Origin: Escherichia coli | GTDB lineage: Bacteria; Pseudomonadota; Gammaproteobacteria; Enterobacterales; Enterobacteriaceae | Direction: 5' to 3' (one strand) | Assembly (NCBI RefSeq): GCF_046105845.1 | Contig: NZ_CP151004.1 | DNA length: 64,000 bases | Shown here: in pieces, positions 6,102-56,771 of the stretch | Numbering within the stretch: the first letter of the stretch is position 1 | How the letters are laid out: the number at the start of each line of letters is the position of its first letter | The notes under the pieces: model-generated | What the model was told of the DNA's origin: nothing | What the model saw: the letters and a program-made list of their open reading frames with translations, nothing else | Database searches by the model: none | Position numbers and translations under genes: made by a program

Positions 6102-6447
6102 TCTCTGCTCCTGTTGATACGGAAAGGGAAACAGGCACACCGTTATTACGCCGCCCGGTCAGCTCCACCACCATTGAACCGTCAAAATTGCTGTTAATGG
6201 TGATGGAATCCAGCGTCAGCCGTGGCTCCCAGCGACTCAGCGCCACATACACTGCCGACATGACCTGCAGGCGTAATGCCGGATTTTGTGGCTGGTCTAT
6301 CAGTGCCGACAGCAGGGAACCATATTCCCGACGGGCAATGCGGCTACCCTGCGGCGTCAGCAAAATGTCCCGCACCGACTGGCGCAGATGGTCAATATCA
6401 GTAATGGCTTTACCGCTGGTATTGTTCATCCCGCTATAAAGCGTCAT
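6088..6447 (-). CDS. W: Baseplate wedge protein (P2 gpW / gp25-like)
   Basis: 119-aa ORF MTLYSGMNNTSGKAITDIDHLRQSVRDILLTPQGSRIARREYGS... Confidence 0.85.
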   Translation of the reverse strand: MTLYSGMNNTSGKAITDIDHLRQSVRDILLTPQGSRIARREYGSLLSALIDQPQNPALRLQVMSAVYVALSRWEPRLTLDSITINSNFDGSMVVELTGRRNNGVPVSLSVSTGAENGSD

Positions 6448-36463: not shown

Positions 36464-36853
36464 TCAGGCGGCTGCACCCGCCGTTTTCTCGTACTTACTG
36501 ATAGTGATCTCGACCTTCCCTTCCGGGATAACCGGTCCCCACTCCACCAGCATTCTTTTCACCTGACTGTCGTCTTCCCACACACCCGCGTGGGTCAGGG
36601 CGTCAAACAGCGCCTTGTTATAGTTGTCCAGATCGCGGATCCGGTTATCCGGAGGAAACAACACGATCTCCACTGAAGCAGGTGCCGACGTTGGTTTTGG
36701 CAGACGACGTAACTGCTCAAATATTGCTGCACACGCCGCGCTCTGGAATTTGCGCCCCGCCGCGCTTATCAGGCTCTTACCAGCAAACGCCCCTTTGTTG
36801 GGGTGTCGCCAGTACGTGTTCACGCTGGGCGGGAAAGGCAGGATCAGCTTCAT
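36464..36853 (-). CDS. rusA: Holliday junction resolvase RusA
   Basis: MKLILPFPPSVNTYWRH...DLDNYNKALFDALTHAGVWEDDSQV. Confidence 0.85.
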   Translation of the reverse strand: MKLILPFPPSVNTYWRHPNKGAFAGKSLISAAGRKFQSAACAAIFEQLRRLPKPTSAPASVEIVLFPPDNRIRDLDNYNKALFDALTHAGVWEDDSQVKRMLVEWGPVIPEGKVEITISKYEKTAGAAA

Positions 36854-37176
36854 ACTTTCAGGCCCCTCTCATGTAACCAGTGGGCTGCACGCAGTCTGGC
36901 GTTTTCCTCACCGGCAAGCAGTGCGCGGATAATCCCGGCTGCCTCGCTGTCGTCGTCCTTCACTGTGGTATGAAGCGTGATACCCCGGGCCACGCCACGC
37001 TTTATCGTGATGACGCCTTTTTTCTCCAGTGCGCGAAGATGCTCCACCGCTGCATTCACCGAACGGTATCCCAGCATGGCTGCCACCTCCTGATTGGTTG
37101 GCGGGAAACCACGTTCTTTCTGATAAGAAATCAGCATATCCAGCACCTGCTGCTGGCATTGAGTTAACGTCGTCAT
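36850..37176 (-). CDS. LexA-N-terminal-like winged-helix DNA-binding protein
   Basis: LTQCQQQVLDMLISYQKERGFPPTNQEVAAMLGYRSVNAAVEHLRALEKKGVITI parallels the LexA DNA-binding domain; no S24 peptidase domain. Confidence 0.6.
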   Translation of the reverse strand: MTTLTQCQQQVLDMLISYQKERGFPPTNQEVAAMLGYRSVNAAVEHLRALEKKGVITIKRGVARGITLHTTVKDDDSEAAGIIRALLAGEENARLRAAHWLHERGLKV

Positions 37177-37664
37177 TAAGCCCACACGTAATTCCCTGAC
37201 AGATACCACTCATCACCCGATACAGCGCGCTTGCTGCTTTTCCGTAAGCACCGCTCACGGCGCGCCAGAAAATTGTTTCGTTCTGACTGGGAGTGGCTTT
37301 CACGGAATGCCGCCATCCACACGGTTGCAGCACGACGGTATAAGCCCCTGGACTCCAGTTCTTCAGCCTGGCGGGTCAGGCACAAAATTACCCGGGGATC
37401 GTTAGTGCCGACATAGAAATTGCGCACAGGTCTGGTTTCACGAACTGGTTGTGGTTCCGGCTCCTGCGCTCTCTCAGTCAGGCGCGGGAAATGTCTGCGT
37501 GTATTTCCTTCACAACGGTGAGCCACACGCCCACTCTGACGTAACTTGCTTGCTGACTGCAGAACGCGCTGCCGTGAGTAACCTGCAAAAGCATCTGCAA
37601 TGTCTCCGGAAGTACACCCCGGATGGGCTTCAATGAATTTCTGAACTTCATTCAAAAGACTCAT
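37176..37664 (-). CDS. PerC/ANR-like small regulator (hypothetical)
   Basis: C-terminal ELESRGLYRRAATVWMAAF resembles the PerC-family signature. Confidence 0.5.
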   Translation of the reverse strand: MSLLNEVQKFIEAHPGCTSGDIADAFAGYSRQRVLQSASKLRQSGRVAHRCEGNTRRHFPRLTERAQEPEPQPVRETRPVRNFYVGTNDPRVILCLTRQAEELESRGLYRRAATVWMAAFRESHSQSERNNFLARRERCLRKSSKRAVSGDEWYLSGNYVWA

Positions 37665-37666
37665 GA

Positions 37667-38485
37667 TTACCCCCTGAATCCTGCCGGGATCTGGCTGTAG
37701 TCCACGTTGTCGTAACTGGCTTTGAAGTACGGGTCCTCGCGTCTGGCTGCAGATACCGCAGGAACTTCCCAGGATTCTTCGAAATGACGATCCGGACCAA
37801 AGAACGTGACAGCCTGTTTCACAAATTGTGTGCCGCTGTTACCCATCGCAGATACCCAGCCCGCGTAGCGTTTCACACCTTCCAGCATGGTTTCGGGTTT
37901 TACCCCCTCATTCAAACGGGCTTTCCAGGCTTTGAAGGCTGCAGATTTTGAATTGCCACCAGCACGTTTGGGGTATGCCAGCCATGCCTGCTCAAACTCC
38001 GGAGAGTATTCCGGTCGGTTTGAACGAACTCGCACAGACTCATCAGCAGATGCACCAACAGCTATTGGTTCATTGACTGGTTCTTTGACTGGTTCAAAAG
38101 AGTGACTGGTTCTGGGTGAATCTCCTGCACCACCCCCTGGTGCAACTCCTGCACTACCTGGTGAATTTGCTGCACCAGATAGTGAATTATTTGCACTACC
38201 CCCTAGTGAATCTCCTGCACCATCAAGATGAAGGAGATAGATATTACTTGAGTTACCTTTTTCACCTTTCCGGGTGACTTTTTTTACCAGCCCGGAATCA
38301 CAAAGGGCCGCAATATGATTCATCACAGAACGTTTGCTAATCTCGCACTGGTCAGCAATATGCTGGTAGCTGGGCCAGCACTCACCCTGATCGCTGGCAT
38401 TATCAGCCAGCTTGATCAGAACCAGTTTTCGCAATGGATTACCCACTCGAATTTTCATCGCTTTAACCATCAGCTCCATACTCAT
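37667..38485 (-). CDS. Replication initiator (lambda O-like) with N-terminal winged HTH and DnaT-like C-terminal tail
   Basis: Start at 38485 after a GGAGG RBS; low-complexity middle encoded by iterons; C-terminus ...DYSQIPAGFRG matches host DnaT ...[10 protein letters not shown]. Confidence 0.7.
   Translation of the reverse strand: MSMELMVKAMKIRVGNPLRKLVLIKLADNASDQGECWPSYQHIADQCEISKRSVMNHIAALCDSGLVKKVTRKGEKGNSSNIYLLHLDGAGDSLGGSANNSLSGAANSPGSAGVAPGGGAGDSPRTSHSFEPVKEPVNEPIAVGASADESVRVRSNRPEYSPEFEQAWLAYPKRAGGNSKSAAFKAWKARLNEGVKPETMLEGVKRYAGWVSAMGNSGTQFVKQAVTFFGPDRHFEESWEVPAVSAARREDPYFKASYDNVDYSQIPAGFRG
38040..38230. repeat. Iteron-like direct repeats inside the initiator gene (putative replication origin)
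   Basis: Repeated TTGACTGGTTC units and ~21-bp units ending in ...CCTGCAC or TTTGCAC (e.g. CCCTGGTGCAACTCCTGCAC, TACCTGGTGAATTTGCTGCAC, CAGATAGTGAATTATTTGCAC, CCCTAGTGAATCTCCTGCAC). Confidence 0.6.
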
Positions 38486-38718
38486 GCTGCACCTCCGAGA
38501 TGCTTCATGTTTTTTCCGGAGCAAAAGGCTATAAGCGGCATACTGATGCGGTAATTACGGCCCAGCGGTTCACAAATCACCTTCTGACATTCACGGTCAA
38601 CCAGGCTAACACGTAGAACATGCCCTGCAGGCGTGGTGTACCACTGCCCAACTGTAGGAATTGATGTTTTTTTACGCTGAAGCAAACGGCAAATATTGAG
38701 GATCAACGGATTAAGCAT
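38482..38718 (-). CDS. Hypothetical protein
   Basis: 78-aa ORF translationally coupled to the initiator. Confidence 0.4.
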   Translation of the reverse strand: MLNPLILNICRLLQRKKTSIPTVGQWYTTPAGHVLRVSLVDRECQKVICEPLGRNYRISMPLIAFCSGKNMKHLGGAA

Positions 38719-39547
38719 GACGATGCCCTCCGCTGATATTCAGGAGACGGTGAATATGAAAATTAGCCTTATCCGCCAGACGAATACGTTCAGCCTGCAA
38801 GTTAAGAAGGGTTTCTACCAAAACCTGATGCGCCTGCGGATCCGAAAGAGTTACCTTGCGCAGAGCACGTAGTGCAGTTGTTACATAACTGAGTTTATGT
38901 AAGTCTTCATCATTCAGACGAGTGAGGGCTGGGACAGTAGCCATGATGGCAGCCTCCGATAACAGTGAATTACCTTCACCACCGGAAACGCCAATTTCGC
39001 TGGTGGTGAACTGAACGGGGTTGGCGTAACCGGCGTTATCGGAAACCGGCGCACCTTTCGGTGCCCCCGTCCAGCCCACCATAATTTGGGTGTGCACAGA
39101 CACAGACGATAAAAAAGACGCTGGCGCGTCATATATCGCCGATAACATTTCCAGGACGCCAATCCCGTCACCCGCTTTATAAGGTGCCTGAACAGTGTAA
39201 CGTCCCGGAATGGCAGAATCAATGTGCTGGTGGTCCTTCACACTCAACAAAATCACGCCTGAATTTCCACAAAGGACTAAAGCACTCATGCGGGTAGTCT
39301 TTGCGAAGATAGATAACGCGCTGTGTTTCTGGTTCCCAACGAATAACATGGACATAAAGCCCTCTTCCGTCACGAAACCAGCGGTTAAGTTCCCGCACAA
39401 CTCGCCCCCCACAGTCAGGTAAAGTTCTCTGTGGTTACTTACAGCCAGGTGATTTGGTAATCTGCATTCATGCCGTAACAACAGGTGTTCAGCGACACTG
39501 ACCACCAGCTGTTGCGACAAACGGTTATTTGCCGTTAAACTGTTCAT
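38711..39547 (-). CDS. Hypothetical phage early protein
   Basis: 278-aa ORF in the cro-proximal early-right operon. Confidence 0.5.
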   Translation of the reverse strand: MNSLTANNRLSQQLVVSVAEHLLLRHECRLPNHLAVSNHRELYLTVGGELCGNLTAGFVTEEGFMSMLFVGNQKHSALSIFAKTTRMSALVLCGNSGVILLSVKDHQHIDSAIPGRYTVQAPYKAGDGIGVLEMLSAIYDAPASFLSSVSVHTQIMVGWTGAPKGAPVSDNAGYANPVQFTTSEIGVSGGEGNSLLSEAAIMATVPALTRLNDEDLHKLSYVTTALRALRKVTLSDPQAHQVLVETLLNLQAERIRLADKANFHIHRLLNISGGHRHA

Positions 39548-40107
39548 GCGTTAGTTTCTCCACAGACACAAAACGCCACGACGCCCGGAGCTGCACACTC
39601 GCGGGCGTCACTCTTTTCTGGAGCGCAAAAGATTTTGTAGACCAGTGCTGCATGCTCTTGGAGCTTCGAAATTGACAGATACAACTCATCATTAATTGCT
39701 GTCTGCTCGTGTGGCTCCACGACCCCATCTTCGATTGCCGAACGAATCTGCTTTGAGTAATTCCCGATCTGTTCGATGACTTCCAGCAGGCGCTGGTTTA
39801 TATCGGCGTTCTCTACTTCCTCAATTTCAGGAAGCGATACGAACACCCCACCAGCAGACTGTGCGACAGCATCCGCAATGTAGTGAGTGTCAGCCGCGCG
39901 CTGTAAAACCATTGCCCATCCCAGCGGGAAAATCTGATCGCCATCGGCACGAAGGCGGTTAAATAATGCGTTCTCTGTTACATCCAGCCAGTCAGCTGCT
40001 TCAGCGTAACCACCCGGCAACGCTGCGATAGTTTTTCTGACAGCTTTCACGTACCACTCAGGCTGTTTTTCTACTTTCCAGTGATACTTACCCACGGTTA
40101 GCCTCAT
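39544..40107 (-). CDS. Hypothetical early regulator (YdaT/CII-like position)
   Basis: 187-aa ORF immediately downstream of cro; family not confirmed. Confidence 0.45.
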   Translation of the reverse strand: MRLTVGKYHWKVEKQPEWYVKAVRKTIAALPGGYAEAADWLDVTENALFNRLRADGDQIFPLGWAMVLQRAADTHYIADAVAQSAGGVFVSLPEIEEVENADINQRLLEVIEQIGNYSKQIRSAIEDGVVEPHEQTAINDELYLSISKLQEHAALVYKIFCAPEKSDARECAAPGVVAFCVCGETNA

Positions 40108-46143: not shown

Positions 46144-47367
46144 TCAGTTTGAATCAGAGATAGTACAATTAACAATCGATTCAACCCTCTTCCACCATGC
46201 CAGGTAAGCTTTACGCTGTTCTTCTAGATAATCGCTCTTATCATAAACTTGCCATACCCCTGGCAGCTTATGACCAAGCATAATTTCTGCGATATGAGGC
46301 GCAGTAAGATCAGAAAAATTTGTTCGTGCTGTCCGTCTCAAGTCATGAAGAGACCAATGAGGGAATTGATATCCTAAACGCCGCCACGCGTACTGCATTA
46401 AATTGTAAGGCAGCGACTGTAATGATGTCCTACCGACTGGCTCCCTGCTTCCTTCCTTAGTAAAAAGCATATCGGAACCGTTGTTCATAGAGATAACGTA
46501 TTTTATAAGCTCTTCAACCGGTTCAATAATGGGCCGCTTTAGCGGTTCGCCTGTTATGTCCCCTGTCTTATGTCGTTCAGGTGGTACAGTCCATACCTTA
46601 TTTATGAAATCAAAATCACCCACCCTAGCAGTAATTAGCTCCGAACTACGGCAACCAAAATGCAGTAATAGTTTAATGAAGGCCCGGTATTTGGGAACCA
46701 TTCTAGAGCCATCGATCGCAGCATAAAGAATTTTAATTTCATCGTGTGTCAGAAACCGTTTCTTCTGACCTTTACGGATATCCATATCTTTACCCGTGAT
46801 ATCCGACAGCGGGCGAGTTTCAATAAGCTTTCTCTTATACGCCCAGACATGGGCCTGCTTTGCGTTAATTAGCAATCGGTCTGCTATTGCTGGAGTCTTA
46901 GTGCTAAGAGGCTCCAGGACTTCTAACCAATCATGCAATGTAGCTGCATCGTGAGGGATATTCCCGATTTTAGAGAACAGGTGCAGCTCAAACGAGCGGA
47001 GTATCTGTTCAGAACCCTTTTTATTTTTTACACAATATGCTTCATACCAGGCACGGATCACAGACTCTACCGTCATGGCTTCAGTAGCTTTTCGTTTTTC
47101 AGCCTGCTTGACCAATCGTGGATTACGGTTTGACTCGAGTTCACCACGGAGACGGATAACTTCTTCTCTGGCCTCTTTTAATCCAGTTGCCGGGTAAGTT
47201 CCGATATCAAGACGCTCACCTTTCCCTGCCCATTGATAACGATATTGAAACACTACGCGACCTTTCGGTGATACTCTGACAGACAGACCATCACGATCGG
47301 ATTTAACCAAAACCTTATCACGTTCCTTTCCAACGACTGAACGCAACCACGCATCAGACAGCGCCAT
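46144..47367 (-). CDS. int: Tyrosine integrase (P4-like, arm-binding N-domain)
   Basis: 407 aa; N-terminal ...LSVRVSPKGRVVFQYRYQWAGKGERLDIGTYPATGLKEAREE; C-terminal ...HDLRRTARTNF...IMLGHKLPGVWQVYDKSDY. Confidence 0.9.
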   Translation of the reverse strand: MALSDAWLRSVVGKERDKVLVKSDRDGLSVRVSPKGRVVFQYRYQWAGKGERLDIGTYPATGLKEAREEVIRLRGELESNRNPRLVKQAEKRKATEAMTVESVIRAWYEAYCVKNKKGSEQILRSFELHLFSKIGNIPHDAATLHDWLEVLEPLSTKTPAIADRLLINAKQAHVWAYKRKLIETRPLSDITGKDMDIRKGQKKRFLTHDEIKILYAAIDGSRMVPKYRAFIKLLLHFGCRSSELITARVGDFDFINKVWTVPPERHKTGDITGEPLKRPIIEPVEELIKYVISMNNGSDMLFTKEGSREPVGRTSLQSLPYNLMQYAWRRLGYQFPHWSLHDLRRTARTNFSDLTAPHIAEIMLGHKLPGVWQVYDKSDYLEEQRKAYLAWWKRVESIVNCTISDSN

Positions 47368-50606: not shown

Positions 50607-50693
50607 GCGAAGGTGGCGGAATTGGTAGACGCGCTAGCTTCAGGTGTTAGTGTCCTTACGGACGTGGGGGTTCAAGTCCCCCCCCTCGCACCA
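50607..50693 (+). tRNA. leuQ: tRNA-Leu (anticodon CAG)
   Basis: GCGAAGGTGGCGGAATTGGTAGACGCG...CTTCAGGTG...GGTTCAAGTCCCCCCCCTCGCACCA; long variable arm; first of three tandem copies. Confidence 0.95.
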
Positions 50694-50721
50694 AAAACCA
50701 CGTTGATATTGCTCGCACTGG

Positions 50722-50808
50722 GCGAAGGTGGCGGAATTGGTAGACGCGCTAGCTTCAGGTGTTAGTGTTCTTACGGACGTGGGGGTTCAAGTCCCCCCCC
50801 TCGCACCA
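50722..50808 (+). tRNA. leuP: tRNA-Leu (anticodon CAG)
   Basis: Second tandem copy, one substitution in the variable arm (GTGTTC vs GTGTCC). Confidence 0.95.
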
Positions 50809-50842
50809 AACGAGGCGATATCAAAAAAAGTAAGATGACTGT

Positions 50843-50929
50843 GCGAAGGTGGCGGAATTGGTAGACGCGCTAGCTTCAGGTGTTAGTGTCCTTACGGACG
50901 TGGGGGTTCAAGTCCCCCCCCTCGCACCA
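50843..50929 (+). tRNA. leuV: tRNA-Leu (anticodon CAG)
   Basis: Third tandem copy, identical to the first. Confidence 0.95.
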
Positions 50930-55491: not shown

Positions 55492-56031
55492 ATGTCTTCC
55501 AGAGTTTTAACCCCGGACGTCGTTGGTATTGACGCCCTGGTACACGATCACCAAACCGTTCTGGCAAAAGCTGAAGGCGGTGTGGTTGCCGTATTTGCTA
55601 ACAATGCCCCGGCGTTTTATGCCGTCACGCCTGCACGCCTGGCTGAACTGCTAGCGCTGGAAGAAAAGCTGGCGCGTCCGGGAAGCGATGTCGCTCTGGA
55701 CGATCAACTCTATCAGGAACCGCAAGCTGCTCCCGTTGCTGTACCCATGGGGAAATTCGTCATGTATCCGGACTGGCAACCCGATGCCGACTTTATCCGC
55801 CTGGCGGCGCTATGGGGCGTGGCACTAAGAGAGCCGGTGACCACCGAAGAACTGGCCTCATTCATTGCCTACTGGCAGGCGGAAGGTAAAGTCTTTCACC
55901 ATGTGCAGTGGCAACAAAAACTGGCGCGCAGCCTGCAAATCGGTCGTGCCAGCAACGGCGGACTGCCGAAACGAGATGTGAATACGGTCAGTGAACCTGA
56001 CAGCCAAATTCCACCAGGATTCAGAGGGTAA
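55492..56031 (+). CDS. dnaT: Primosomal protein DnaT
   Basis: From [17 protein letters not shown]...; C-terminus ...[13 protein letters not shown]. Confidence 0.9.
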
Positions 56032-56033
56032 CG

Positions 56034-56771
56034 ATGAAAAACGTTGGCGACCTGATGCAACGCCTGCAAAAAATGATGCCTGCCCATATCAAACCTGCTT
56101 TCAAAACGGGTGAAGAACTACTGGCCTGGCAGAAAGAACAAGGGGCGATCCGCTCCGCCGCTCTCGAACGTGAAAATCGGGCGATGAAAATGCAGCGCAC
56201 CTTTAACCGCTCCGGTATTCGTCCACTGCATCAGAACTGCTCCTTTGAGAACTATCGCGTTGAGTGTGAAGGGCAAATGAATGCGTTAAGCAAAGCGCGC
56301 CAGTATGTCGAAGAGTTTGACGGCAACATCGCCAGCTTCATCTTTTCTGGTAAGCCAGGAACCGGCAAAAACCATCTGGCGGCGGCAATCTGCAACGAGC
56401 TGCTGCTACGCGGTAAATCCGTATTGATCATCACCGTGGCCGATATTATGTCGGCGATGAAAGATACCTTCAGGAATAGCGGTACCAGCGAAGAACAACT
56501 GCTTAACGATCTGAGCAACGTTGATCTGCTGGTGATCGATGAGATCGGCGTGCAGACCGAATCGAAATACGAAAAAGTGATCATCAACCAGATCGTCGAT
56601 CGCCGCTCTTCTTCCAAACGCCCAACCGGGATGCTGACCAACAGTAATATGGAAGAGATGACCAAGTTGCTGGGCGAACGCGTGATGGACCGTATGCGCC
56701 TGGGTAATAGTTTGTGGGTGATCTTCAACTGGGATAGCTACCGTAGTCGGGTAACGGGTAAAGAGTATTAA
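56034..56771 (+). CDS. dnaC: Helicase loader DnaC
   Basis: 245 aa, Walker A GKPGTGKNHL, Walker B LLVIDEIG. Confidence 0.9.
   Translation: MKNVGDLMQRLQKMMPAHIKPAFKTGEELLAWQKEQGAIRSAALERENRAMKMQRTFNRSGIRPLHQNCSFENYRVECEGQMNALSKARQYVEEFDGNIASFIFSGKPGTGKNHLAAAICNELLLRGKSVLIITVADIMSAMKDTFRNSGTSEEQLLNDLSNVDLLVIDEIGVQTESKYEKVIINQIVDRRSSSKRPTGMLTNSNMEEMTKLLGERVMDRMRLGNSLWVIFNWDSYRSRVTGKEY

Follow-up and report, generated by a model that had tools for sequence, protein, structure and literature searches.

A stretch of 64,000 nucleotides of Escherichia coli DNA (contig NZ_CP151004.1 of assembly GCF_046105845.1; hereafter the window) carries a prophage replication initiator gene and the host genes dnaT and dnaC. 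The C-terminal tail of the initiator, a short peptide shared with DnaT and with many other replication proteins, is described here together with its relation to the loading of the replicative helicase. The features concerned are as follows, with positions in the window.

37667–38485, minus strand: replication initiator gene, the equivalent of SfV orf39 (open reading frame (ORF) of 272 amino acids plus stop; PHROG 270, phage identity)
38216–38485, minus strand: N-terminal winged-helix domain, predicted to bind the origin, approximately amino acids 1–90 (Pfam HTH_36, PHROG)
37751–38023, minus strand: C-terminal helical domain, amino acids 155–245, with the signature FxxxWxxYPxR...YVKQAxTFFGPDxHFxExW
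37670–37711, minus strand: DnaT-type C-terminal tail DNVDYSQIPAGFRG, with the core IPxGFRG (alignment with DnaT, family conservation)
38116–38220, no strand assigned: five iterons, resembling GTGCAGGAGATTCAC when read on the coding strand and 21–24 nucleotides apart (repeat search)
38074–38112, no strand assigned: three GAACCAGTCA repeats adjoining the iterons (read from the sequence)
55492–56031, plus strand: host dnaT, primosomal protein of 179 amino acids (Pfam DnaT, E = 1.1e-20; NCBIfam NF002770, E = 1.5e-104)
55972–56028, plus strand: C-terminal tail of DnaT, kept in 107 orthologues
56034–56771, plus strand: host dnaC helicase loader, the sole loader-like ORF in the window and, alone or with DnaB, the proposed target of both tails

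The product of the minus-strand ORF at 37667–38485 is a protein of 272 amino acids that ends in ...YFKASYDNVDYSQIPAGFRG. As a whole it was assigned to PHROG family phrog_270, 'replication initiation protein' (E = 1.5e-88). Phage 2H10 (complete genome) has the locus with 100% identity and Shigella phage SfV with about 97%, and the protein shares 98.5% identity with SfV orf39 and 87% with ST64B Sb42. In the N-terminal part, Pfam HTH_36 was matched at amino acids 17–67 (E = 2.8e-11) and DnaD_N weakly (E = 8e-5), and the PHROG families 8540/391, 'replication initiation O-like', covered amino acids 1–149 (E = 3e-61 and 9e-39). For the C-terminal part, the PHROG matches carried the label replication protein or the label DnaD-like helicase loader. 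Its C-domain (amino acids 155–245) belongs to a family of 4473 clusters in a 50%-identity library, the majority without the tail, and was modelled by AlphaFold2 as three long helices and one short one, with a predicted local distance difference test score (pLDDT) of 86.8. Its scores against the DDBH2 fold of the DnaD-like organisers (SPP1 G38P/G39P type) were below significance, and Pfam DnaB_2 gave no match. Phg_2220_C, the O-type C-terminal domain, was not found in the initiator by Pfam. By its N-terminal domain, the iterons within its own gene and its operon position, the initiator is, as judged from sequence, a lambda-O-like origin-binding protein.

The initiator and DnaT were compared at several levels. 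In a BLASTP alignment of the two proteins only the last nine residues were aligned, with eight of nine identical (E = 0.010 in this single comparison). The near identity of the two C-termini claimed in the original prediction is therefore confirmed, and its coordinates and sequence strings were correct. The initiator tail is a shortened variant: the core SQIPxGFRG is present, and the 'PD' and 'RDxN' found upstream in the full motif are absent. A DnaT-type domain, for which a profile search had been suggested, was not found in the initiator with Pfam or NCBIfam. BLASTP and Pfam likewise gave no similarity, beyond the tail, to the N-terminal oligomerisation/PriB-binding domain of DnaT or to its acidic linker. 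Domain-level homology between the initiator C-domain and the C-terminal domain (CTD) of DnaT was rejected, hhalign assigning it a probability of 9% when a 140-sequence alignment was compared with the DnaT CTD alignment; against the single DnaT sequence the probability was 39%, over the same 28 columns. From the lack of a Pfam or NCBIfam match and the low hhalign probability, the similarity between the two proteins is confined to the tail.

In DnaT itself few parts are as conserved as the tail. At least 98% of 107 orthologues keep each of the residues RD, N, S, PD, IP and GFRG, and the full motif RDxNxxSxPDxxIPxGFRG is nearly invariant among them. By nuclear magnetic resonance the tail, of roughly 20 residues, is flexible (PMC5778457). 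Two further ideas were dropped: a reading of QIPPGF as a clamp-binding motif, as the Q is not conserved, and a link of dnaT822 to the C-terminus of DnaT, as the literature has dnaT822 deleting codons 87–92.

A tblastn search with the last 24 residues of DnaT showed that many replication proteins of enterobacterial phages bear the tail, among them Rac YdaU, the 'O' proteins of Gifsy-1/2, SPN1S gp46, Stx phage 75/02 gp15, mEp460 and Klebsiella phages. A scan of IMG/VR with a degenerate DNA pattern of PDxxIPxGFRG, which ascertains loci on the conserved form of the motif, gave 120 loci, and in 119 of these the motif stood 0–9 residues before the stop of an ORF of 260–400 amino acids. The domains that precede the tail in phages fall into five unrelated clusters, and the Pfam architectures that carry it are Phage_rep_O, DUF1376+DnaT, DnaT and Phg_2220_C. 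Some tails run 1–5 residues further, for example GFRGAK and GFRGGPAP. The SfV-type initiators all have I, P, G, F, R and G (78/78); x is A, E, V or T, and the flanks vary. One initiator with a DnaT CTD (L077, IMGVR_UViG_3300012195_000011; ORF end near 6258–6320) has the tail core twice in tandem, IPPGFRGSKIPVGFRG, and the C-terminal end ...EPDSEIPPGFRGSKIPVGFRG; the duplication would fit an avidity role of a docking peptide. The tail was also observed on two plasmid initiators, an RPA-family protein of the IncX6/IncU plasmid pGN2-KPC (L581, 1–1029), which ends in ...EPDSEIPPGFRG, and a Rep_3 (WH1-WH2) protein of a Serratia plasmid (L582, 1625–2563), which ends in a DnaT-type tail. Thus, the DnaT-type tail is not confined to phages.

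When one genome per species was scanned with the same DNA pattern, 120 hits were obtained, 89 of them at the C-terminus of real ORFs. Sixty-one of the 89 were DnaT, every one followed by a host-type dnaC. Another 21 were interpreted as initiators of prophages: a phage-type DnaC-like gene comes next in 10 of them, and in 11 no loader lies within 300 nucleotides. For the other seven the downstream sequence was too short to judge. Among the hits for which record titles were listed (80 of the 120), all motif-terminal ORFs were from Enterobacteriaceae or Erwiniaceae, save one from an unclassified proteobacterial metagenome-assembled genome. The other 31 hits, roughly the number expected by chance, were internal or lay in tiny ORFs, and their listed titles were of other phyla. 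The tail is absent from the C-domain homologues of Vibrio, Burkholderia and Pseudomonas phages. Their hosts use DciA instead of DnaC. The tail is, then, a portable, selected and strictly C-terminal motif on unrelated Enterobacterales phage and plasmid initiators. The picture of a single phage mimicking DnaT has to be given up, as the tail is a widespread module, and DnaT looks like one member of the set of carriers rather than the model that one phage has copied.

The second part of the original prediction, that the element has no helicase loader of its own, was upheld. When all six frames of the window were scanned by phmmer, with close and distant DnaC-like proteins, lambda P, TL-2011b P, P22 gp12, a Stx-phage DnaB-like helicase and a primase-helicase as references, host dnaC alone was matched. 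In the annotation of the complete 2H10 and SfV genomes, too, there is one replication protein and no loader. Upstream of the initiator are the CII (CP76) gene (39544–40107) and an Ash-family gene (38711–39547), and downstream are RusA and Q. This synteny agrees with cI-cro-...-orf39 of SfV and places the initiator in the early-right operon, after cro/cII.

Absence of a loader is, however, no hallmark of tail carriers, as about 60% of tail-bearing phage initiators precede a close DnaC paralogue. The gene 3′ of 112 informative tail-bearing viral ORFs was DnaC-like in 70 cases and no loader was found within 2.5 kb in 42; lambda P and a DnaB-like helicase were each found downstream of none of the 112. 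The DnaC-like genes of the 70 loci start at −28 to +6 nucleotides relative to the stop of the tail ORF, and the 'DnaC-like' and 'none' states both occur in four of the five pre-tail clusters. Viewed from the loader side, a tail-ending ORF lies directly upstream of the YdaV-type phage DnaC paralogues in 77/77 cases and of the Gifsy-2-type paralogues in 75/75 (frame-agnostic count), 152/152 together. A tail-like ORF end was found in any of six frames in 0/80 lambda-P loci and in 0/80 P22-gp12 loci. The lambda-P loci have instead the ...TDWIxGV end of lambda O, LDLTNTDWIYGVDL-type, in 80/80. In E. coli phage TL-2011b, gp12 (L578, 1485–3057) has a genuine DnaT CTD and the end ...LDWNNTDWIEGV..., followed by a P-like gene, and the same combination of DnaT domain, lambda-O-like end (...NTDWIEGV) and P-like gene was seen in Actinobacillus phage pPE4 (L575, 1329–2907). 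The 'O' protein of Stx1_14040 has a C-domain 72% identical to that of the window initiator and no tail; downstream of it come a distant IstB-like loader and a DnaB-like helicase of the phage itself.

These loci represent natural swaps, in which the same initiator domains are found with a DnaT-type tail and DnaC loading, with a lambda-O-type end and P, or with no tail and a phage helicase. The tail is associated exclusively with DnaC of the host type or its close phage paralogues, and the last ~15 residues of the initiator seem to predict the type of loader whatever domain precedes them. A weak hint of covariation with the loader clade comes from the x of IPxGFRG: the loci that have a YdaV/Stx-type loader show P there (35/35), and beside Gifsy-2-type loaders A, S, T or N is frequent.

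To these results the following mechanism could be fitted. With a confidence a little above even, we favour the reading that the tail serves as a portable peptide by which the DnaB–DnaC complex is docked, so that the phage would need no loader of its own; the partner is deduced from the comparative pattern and could be DnaC, DnaB or the complex. The winged-helix initiator would sit on the iteron origin and its tail would dock DnaB6–DnaC6, most likely via the DnaC-type loader. The tail of DnaT would do the equivalent job at restart forks. If the tail does dock host DnaB–DnaC, a single replication protein could suffice for SfV-type phages, which have no loader. The idea of docking draws on the analogy with lambda, in which the C-terminal end of O couples to P. 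Contact of the C-terminal part of lambda O with P is known from lambda hybrid-phage genetics (Wickner & Zahn).

The layout of the dnaT-dnaC operon, which is that of a phage tail ORF and its loader, was counted in favour of docking. In the window dnaC begins three nucleotides after the stop of dnaT, and the pair (55492–56771) is arranged like Rac ydaU-ydaV (L003) and the L075-type loci, with a DnaT CTD and tail abutting a DnaC-like gene. The layout shared with phage cassettes suggests that dnaT was domesticated together with dnaC. More tentatively, and with somewhat less than even confidence, the last ~19 residues of DnaT may be the missing recruiter of DnaB–DnaC, a peptide repeatedly grafted onto phage and plasmid initiators, with dnaT-dnaC itself a domesticated phage cassette. 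How PriA/PriB/DnaT recruit DnaB/DnaC is stated to be unknown (PMC13377028, PMC11087952), and the targeting mechanism 'is still unknown' (PMC4132743). In the cryo-electron microscopy structure of the preprimosome the DnaT CTD contacts PriA and the DnaT linker contacts PriB, and the tail is neither modelled nor described (PMC13377028). On the DnaC side, an alignment showed residue A84 to be invariant in host DnaC as well as in all of the 21 phage paralogues, and the substitution A84Y (dnaC1331) blocks the PriA/PriB/DnaT pathway in vitro. A84 is a candidate docking surface, but only a lead, since it is also kept in a tail-independent Burkholderia phage loader.

Several observations weigh against docking on DnaB–DnaC. 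No confident docking was obtained with AlphaFold2 for a DnaC-(G4S)6-DnaT tail fusion, in which the tail had a pLDDT of ~45 and the linker 28–36; the alignment consisted of 22 cognate loader-tail pairs, and the DnaC model was mediocre (mean 64) and monomeric. A 2026 structural paper favours the N-terminal domain of DnaT as the recruiter. The comparative pattern points rather to the conserved disordered tail, a small element, than to that domain. Epsilon15 gp42 (L577, 1533–2210) has a DnaT CTD and neither tail nor loader, while the tail is present in gp46 of its genus-mate SPN1S, a contrast that fits none of the hypotheses. Aeromonas phage pAEv1818 has a DnaC-like loader with merely a degenerate '...EKPPGFN' end, and Burkholderia BcepIL02 has a distant DnaC-like loader beside a tail-less initiator. 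The locus sets are redundant, mostly from E. coli and Salmonella, and represent ~5–10 independent lineages, not hundreds; 'no loader' denotes no match to the reference set within 2.5 kb. Co-occurrence, moreover, does not reveal whether the tail contacts DnaC or DnaB.

The last point bears on a rival explanation that appears unlikely, namely that the tail docks not on a DnaC-type loader but on the DnaB of the host, perhaps at a surface that stays free in the DnaB–DnaC complex. The core of the tail is invariant whether it occurs with host DnaC or with a paralogue just 49–55% identical, which an invariant host target would explain; the tail is lost where the phage supplies its own DnaB-like helicase; and it occurs on plasmid Reps. 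The iteron plasmid Reps pi, pSC101 RepA and TrfA contact DnaB. However, phages with lambda-P-type loaders use host DnaB too, and yet the tail is replaced in all 80 of their loci by the P-specific end, and the tail-coding end abuts a DnaC-type gene in every phage locus counted from the loader side as well as in every sampled dnaT operon. The tail might instead recruit the restart primosome through PriA, PriB or SSB, the phage initiator acting as a DnaT surrogate that feeds the PriA pathway. DnaT works with PriA and PriB, and phiX174, ColE1 and Mu use the PriA primosome. This explanation is nevertheless very improbable: the tail is not described in the DnaT–PriA or DnaT–PriB interface (PMC13377028), and a strict link to DnaC-type as against P-type loaders is not predicted by it. 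The proposal that the initiator mimics DnaT to recruit the primosome or DnaC thus stands in part. The tail is under selection and tied to DnaC-type loading, whereas recruitment through PriA/PriB is disfavoured.

A role of the tail in cis or as a regulatory tag, through single-stranded DNA binding or oligomerisation or as a degradation or chaperone signal that limits the initiator, is also very improbable. Its appeal lies in the fact that initiators are often protease or chaperone clients; in addition, loss of residues 154–179 of DnaT together with the N-terminal domain modestly weakens cooperative single-stranded DNA binding, the dissociation constant rising from 12.9 to 27.1 µM (PMC4132743). 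A domain-specific function in cis is at odds with the presence of the tail on unrelated folds, winged-helix plasmid Reps included, and neither the tracking of loader type nor the restriction to Enterobacterales would be expected of a degron. Least credible of all is a tail without function, left behind by recombination of prophages with the nearby dnaT, or a chance match. The prophage lies only ~8 kb from dnaT and the pairwise E value is not impressive, but the tail is present in all 78 SfV-type phages wherever they are located, is shared by initiators of five other architectures and by two families of plasmid Reps, is C-terminal in all but one of the viral hits, and has an invariant core beside variable flanks. 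This explanation is effectively refuted by the counts of position, conservation and loader linkage.

Docking of the tail on DnaB–DnaC, if true, would explain the single-gene replication modules of SfV, Stx2c-type, SPN1S and mEp460 phages and of IncX6 and Rep_3 plasmids. It would make loader dependence predictable from the last 10 residues of an initiator, and would support a phage origin of dnaT-dnaC. If docking is wrong, the tail still needs explaining, because of its conservation in DnaT.

With lambda O/P the window element shares a place in the early-right operon, iterons within the initiator's own gene, an N-terminal DNA-binding part and, as proposed for the window protein by analogy, a C-terminal part that couples to helicase loading. 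It differs in having no P gene and no Phg_2220_C and in ending IPAGFRG, not in the O-type tail; its proposed partner would be host DnaB–DnaC and not a phage loader. The SSB tail (...DDDIPF) is a short, disordered, strictly C-terminal and conserved peptide that recruits many replication and repair partners. The DnaT-type tail resembles it as a short, disordered, conserved C-terminal peptide, the docking role here being only proposed; unlike the SSB tail, it has another sequence and needs no free C-terminal Phe. With E. coli DnaT (PF17948, NF002770) the window protein has in common the core SQIPxGFRG and, as proposed, action just before DnaB–DnaC delivery. Unlike DnaT, it lacks the three-helix single-stranded-DNA-binding CTD and the N-terminal oligomerisation domain, and its probable target is an origin sequence, not a PriA/PriB-bound fork.

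A genuine DnaT CTD is present in other phage initiators, among them SPN1S gp46, phiV10 and TL-2011b gp12. The DopC proteins of Cellvibrionales have shown that O-like proteins can carry 'DnaT_C', recognised with HHpred by its match to 2ru8 (Brezellec et al. 2017, PMC5509034). DopC/DopE and the window initiator are alike in the HTH_36 O-like N-terminus and a DnaT-derived C-terminal element, but DopC has the DnaT CTD and a P-like DopE, whereas the window protein has the tail only and DnaC-type loading. The tail motif is not singled out in that paper (PMC5509034). Phage replication proteins with a DnaT-like domain are already recognised, under the annotations 'primosomal protein I' or 'DnaT-like ssDNA-binding domain-containing protein'. 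In the openly searchable literature, DnaT reviews included, no description was found of the tail as a separate motif, of its spread on unrelated initiators or of any connection between it and DnaC-type loading. Both the phage gene and its class were known before; what is new is the proposed tail-based loader-less coupling.

The five iterons lie within the coding region of a low-complexity linker of the initiator. Four copies of the 15-bp repeat have two mismatches or fewer, and the fifth (38182–38196) was identified by the repeat finder; across the window nine matches to the iteron pattern were found as against 1.55 expected. They are presumed to be the origin of replication by likeness to the lambda ori within O. 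The adjoining GAACCAGTCA repeats are possibly a part of the origin or an unwinding region.

A gene for a PerC-family activator (162 amino acids; Pfam PerC, E = 1e-9) occupies 37176–37664 on the minus strand, beginning three nucleotides past the initiator stop, the slot in which other phages have a loader. Positions 36850–37209 on the same strand encode a protein of 119 amino acids made up of a LexA DNA-binding domain alone (Pfam LexA_DNA_bind, E = 4e-19; phrog_362, 'transcriptional repressor'). As a cleavage/peptidase domain is missing, the protein could be an uncleavable LexA-like repressor or a decoy. The short distance between the prophage and dnaT-dnaC is apparently a coincidence. Three tandem tRNA-Leu(CAG) genes (50607–50929, plus strand) lie between the integrase end of the prophage (46144–47367) and dnaT.

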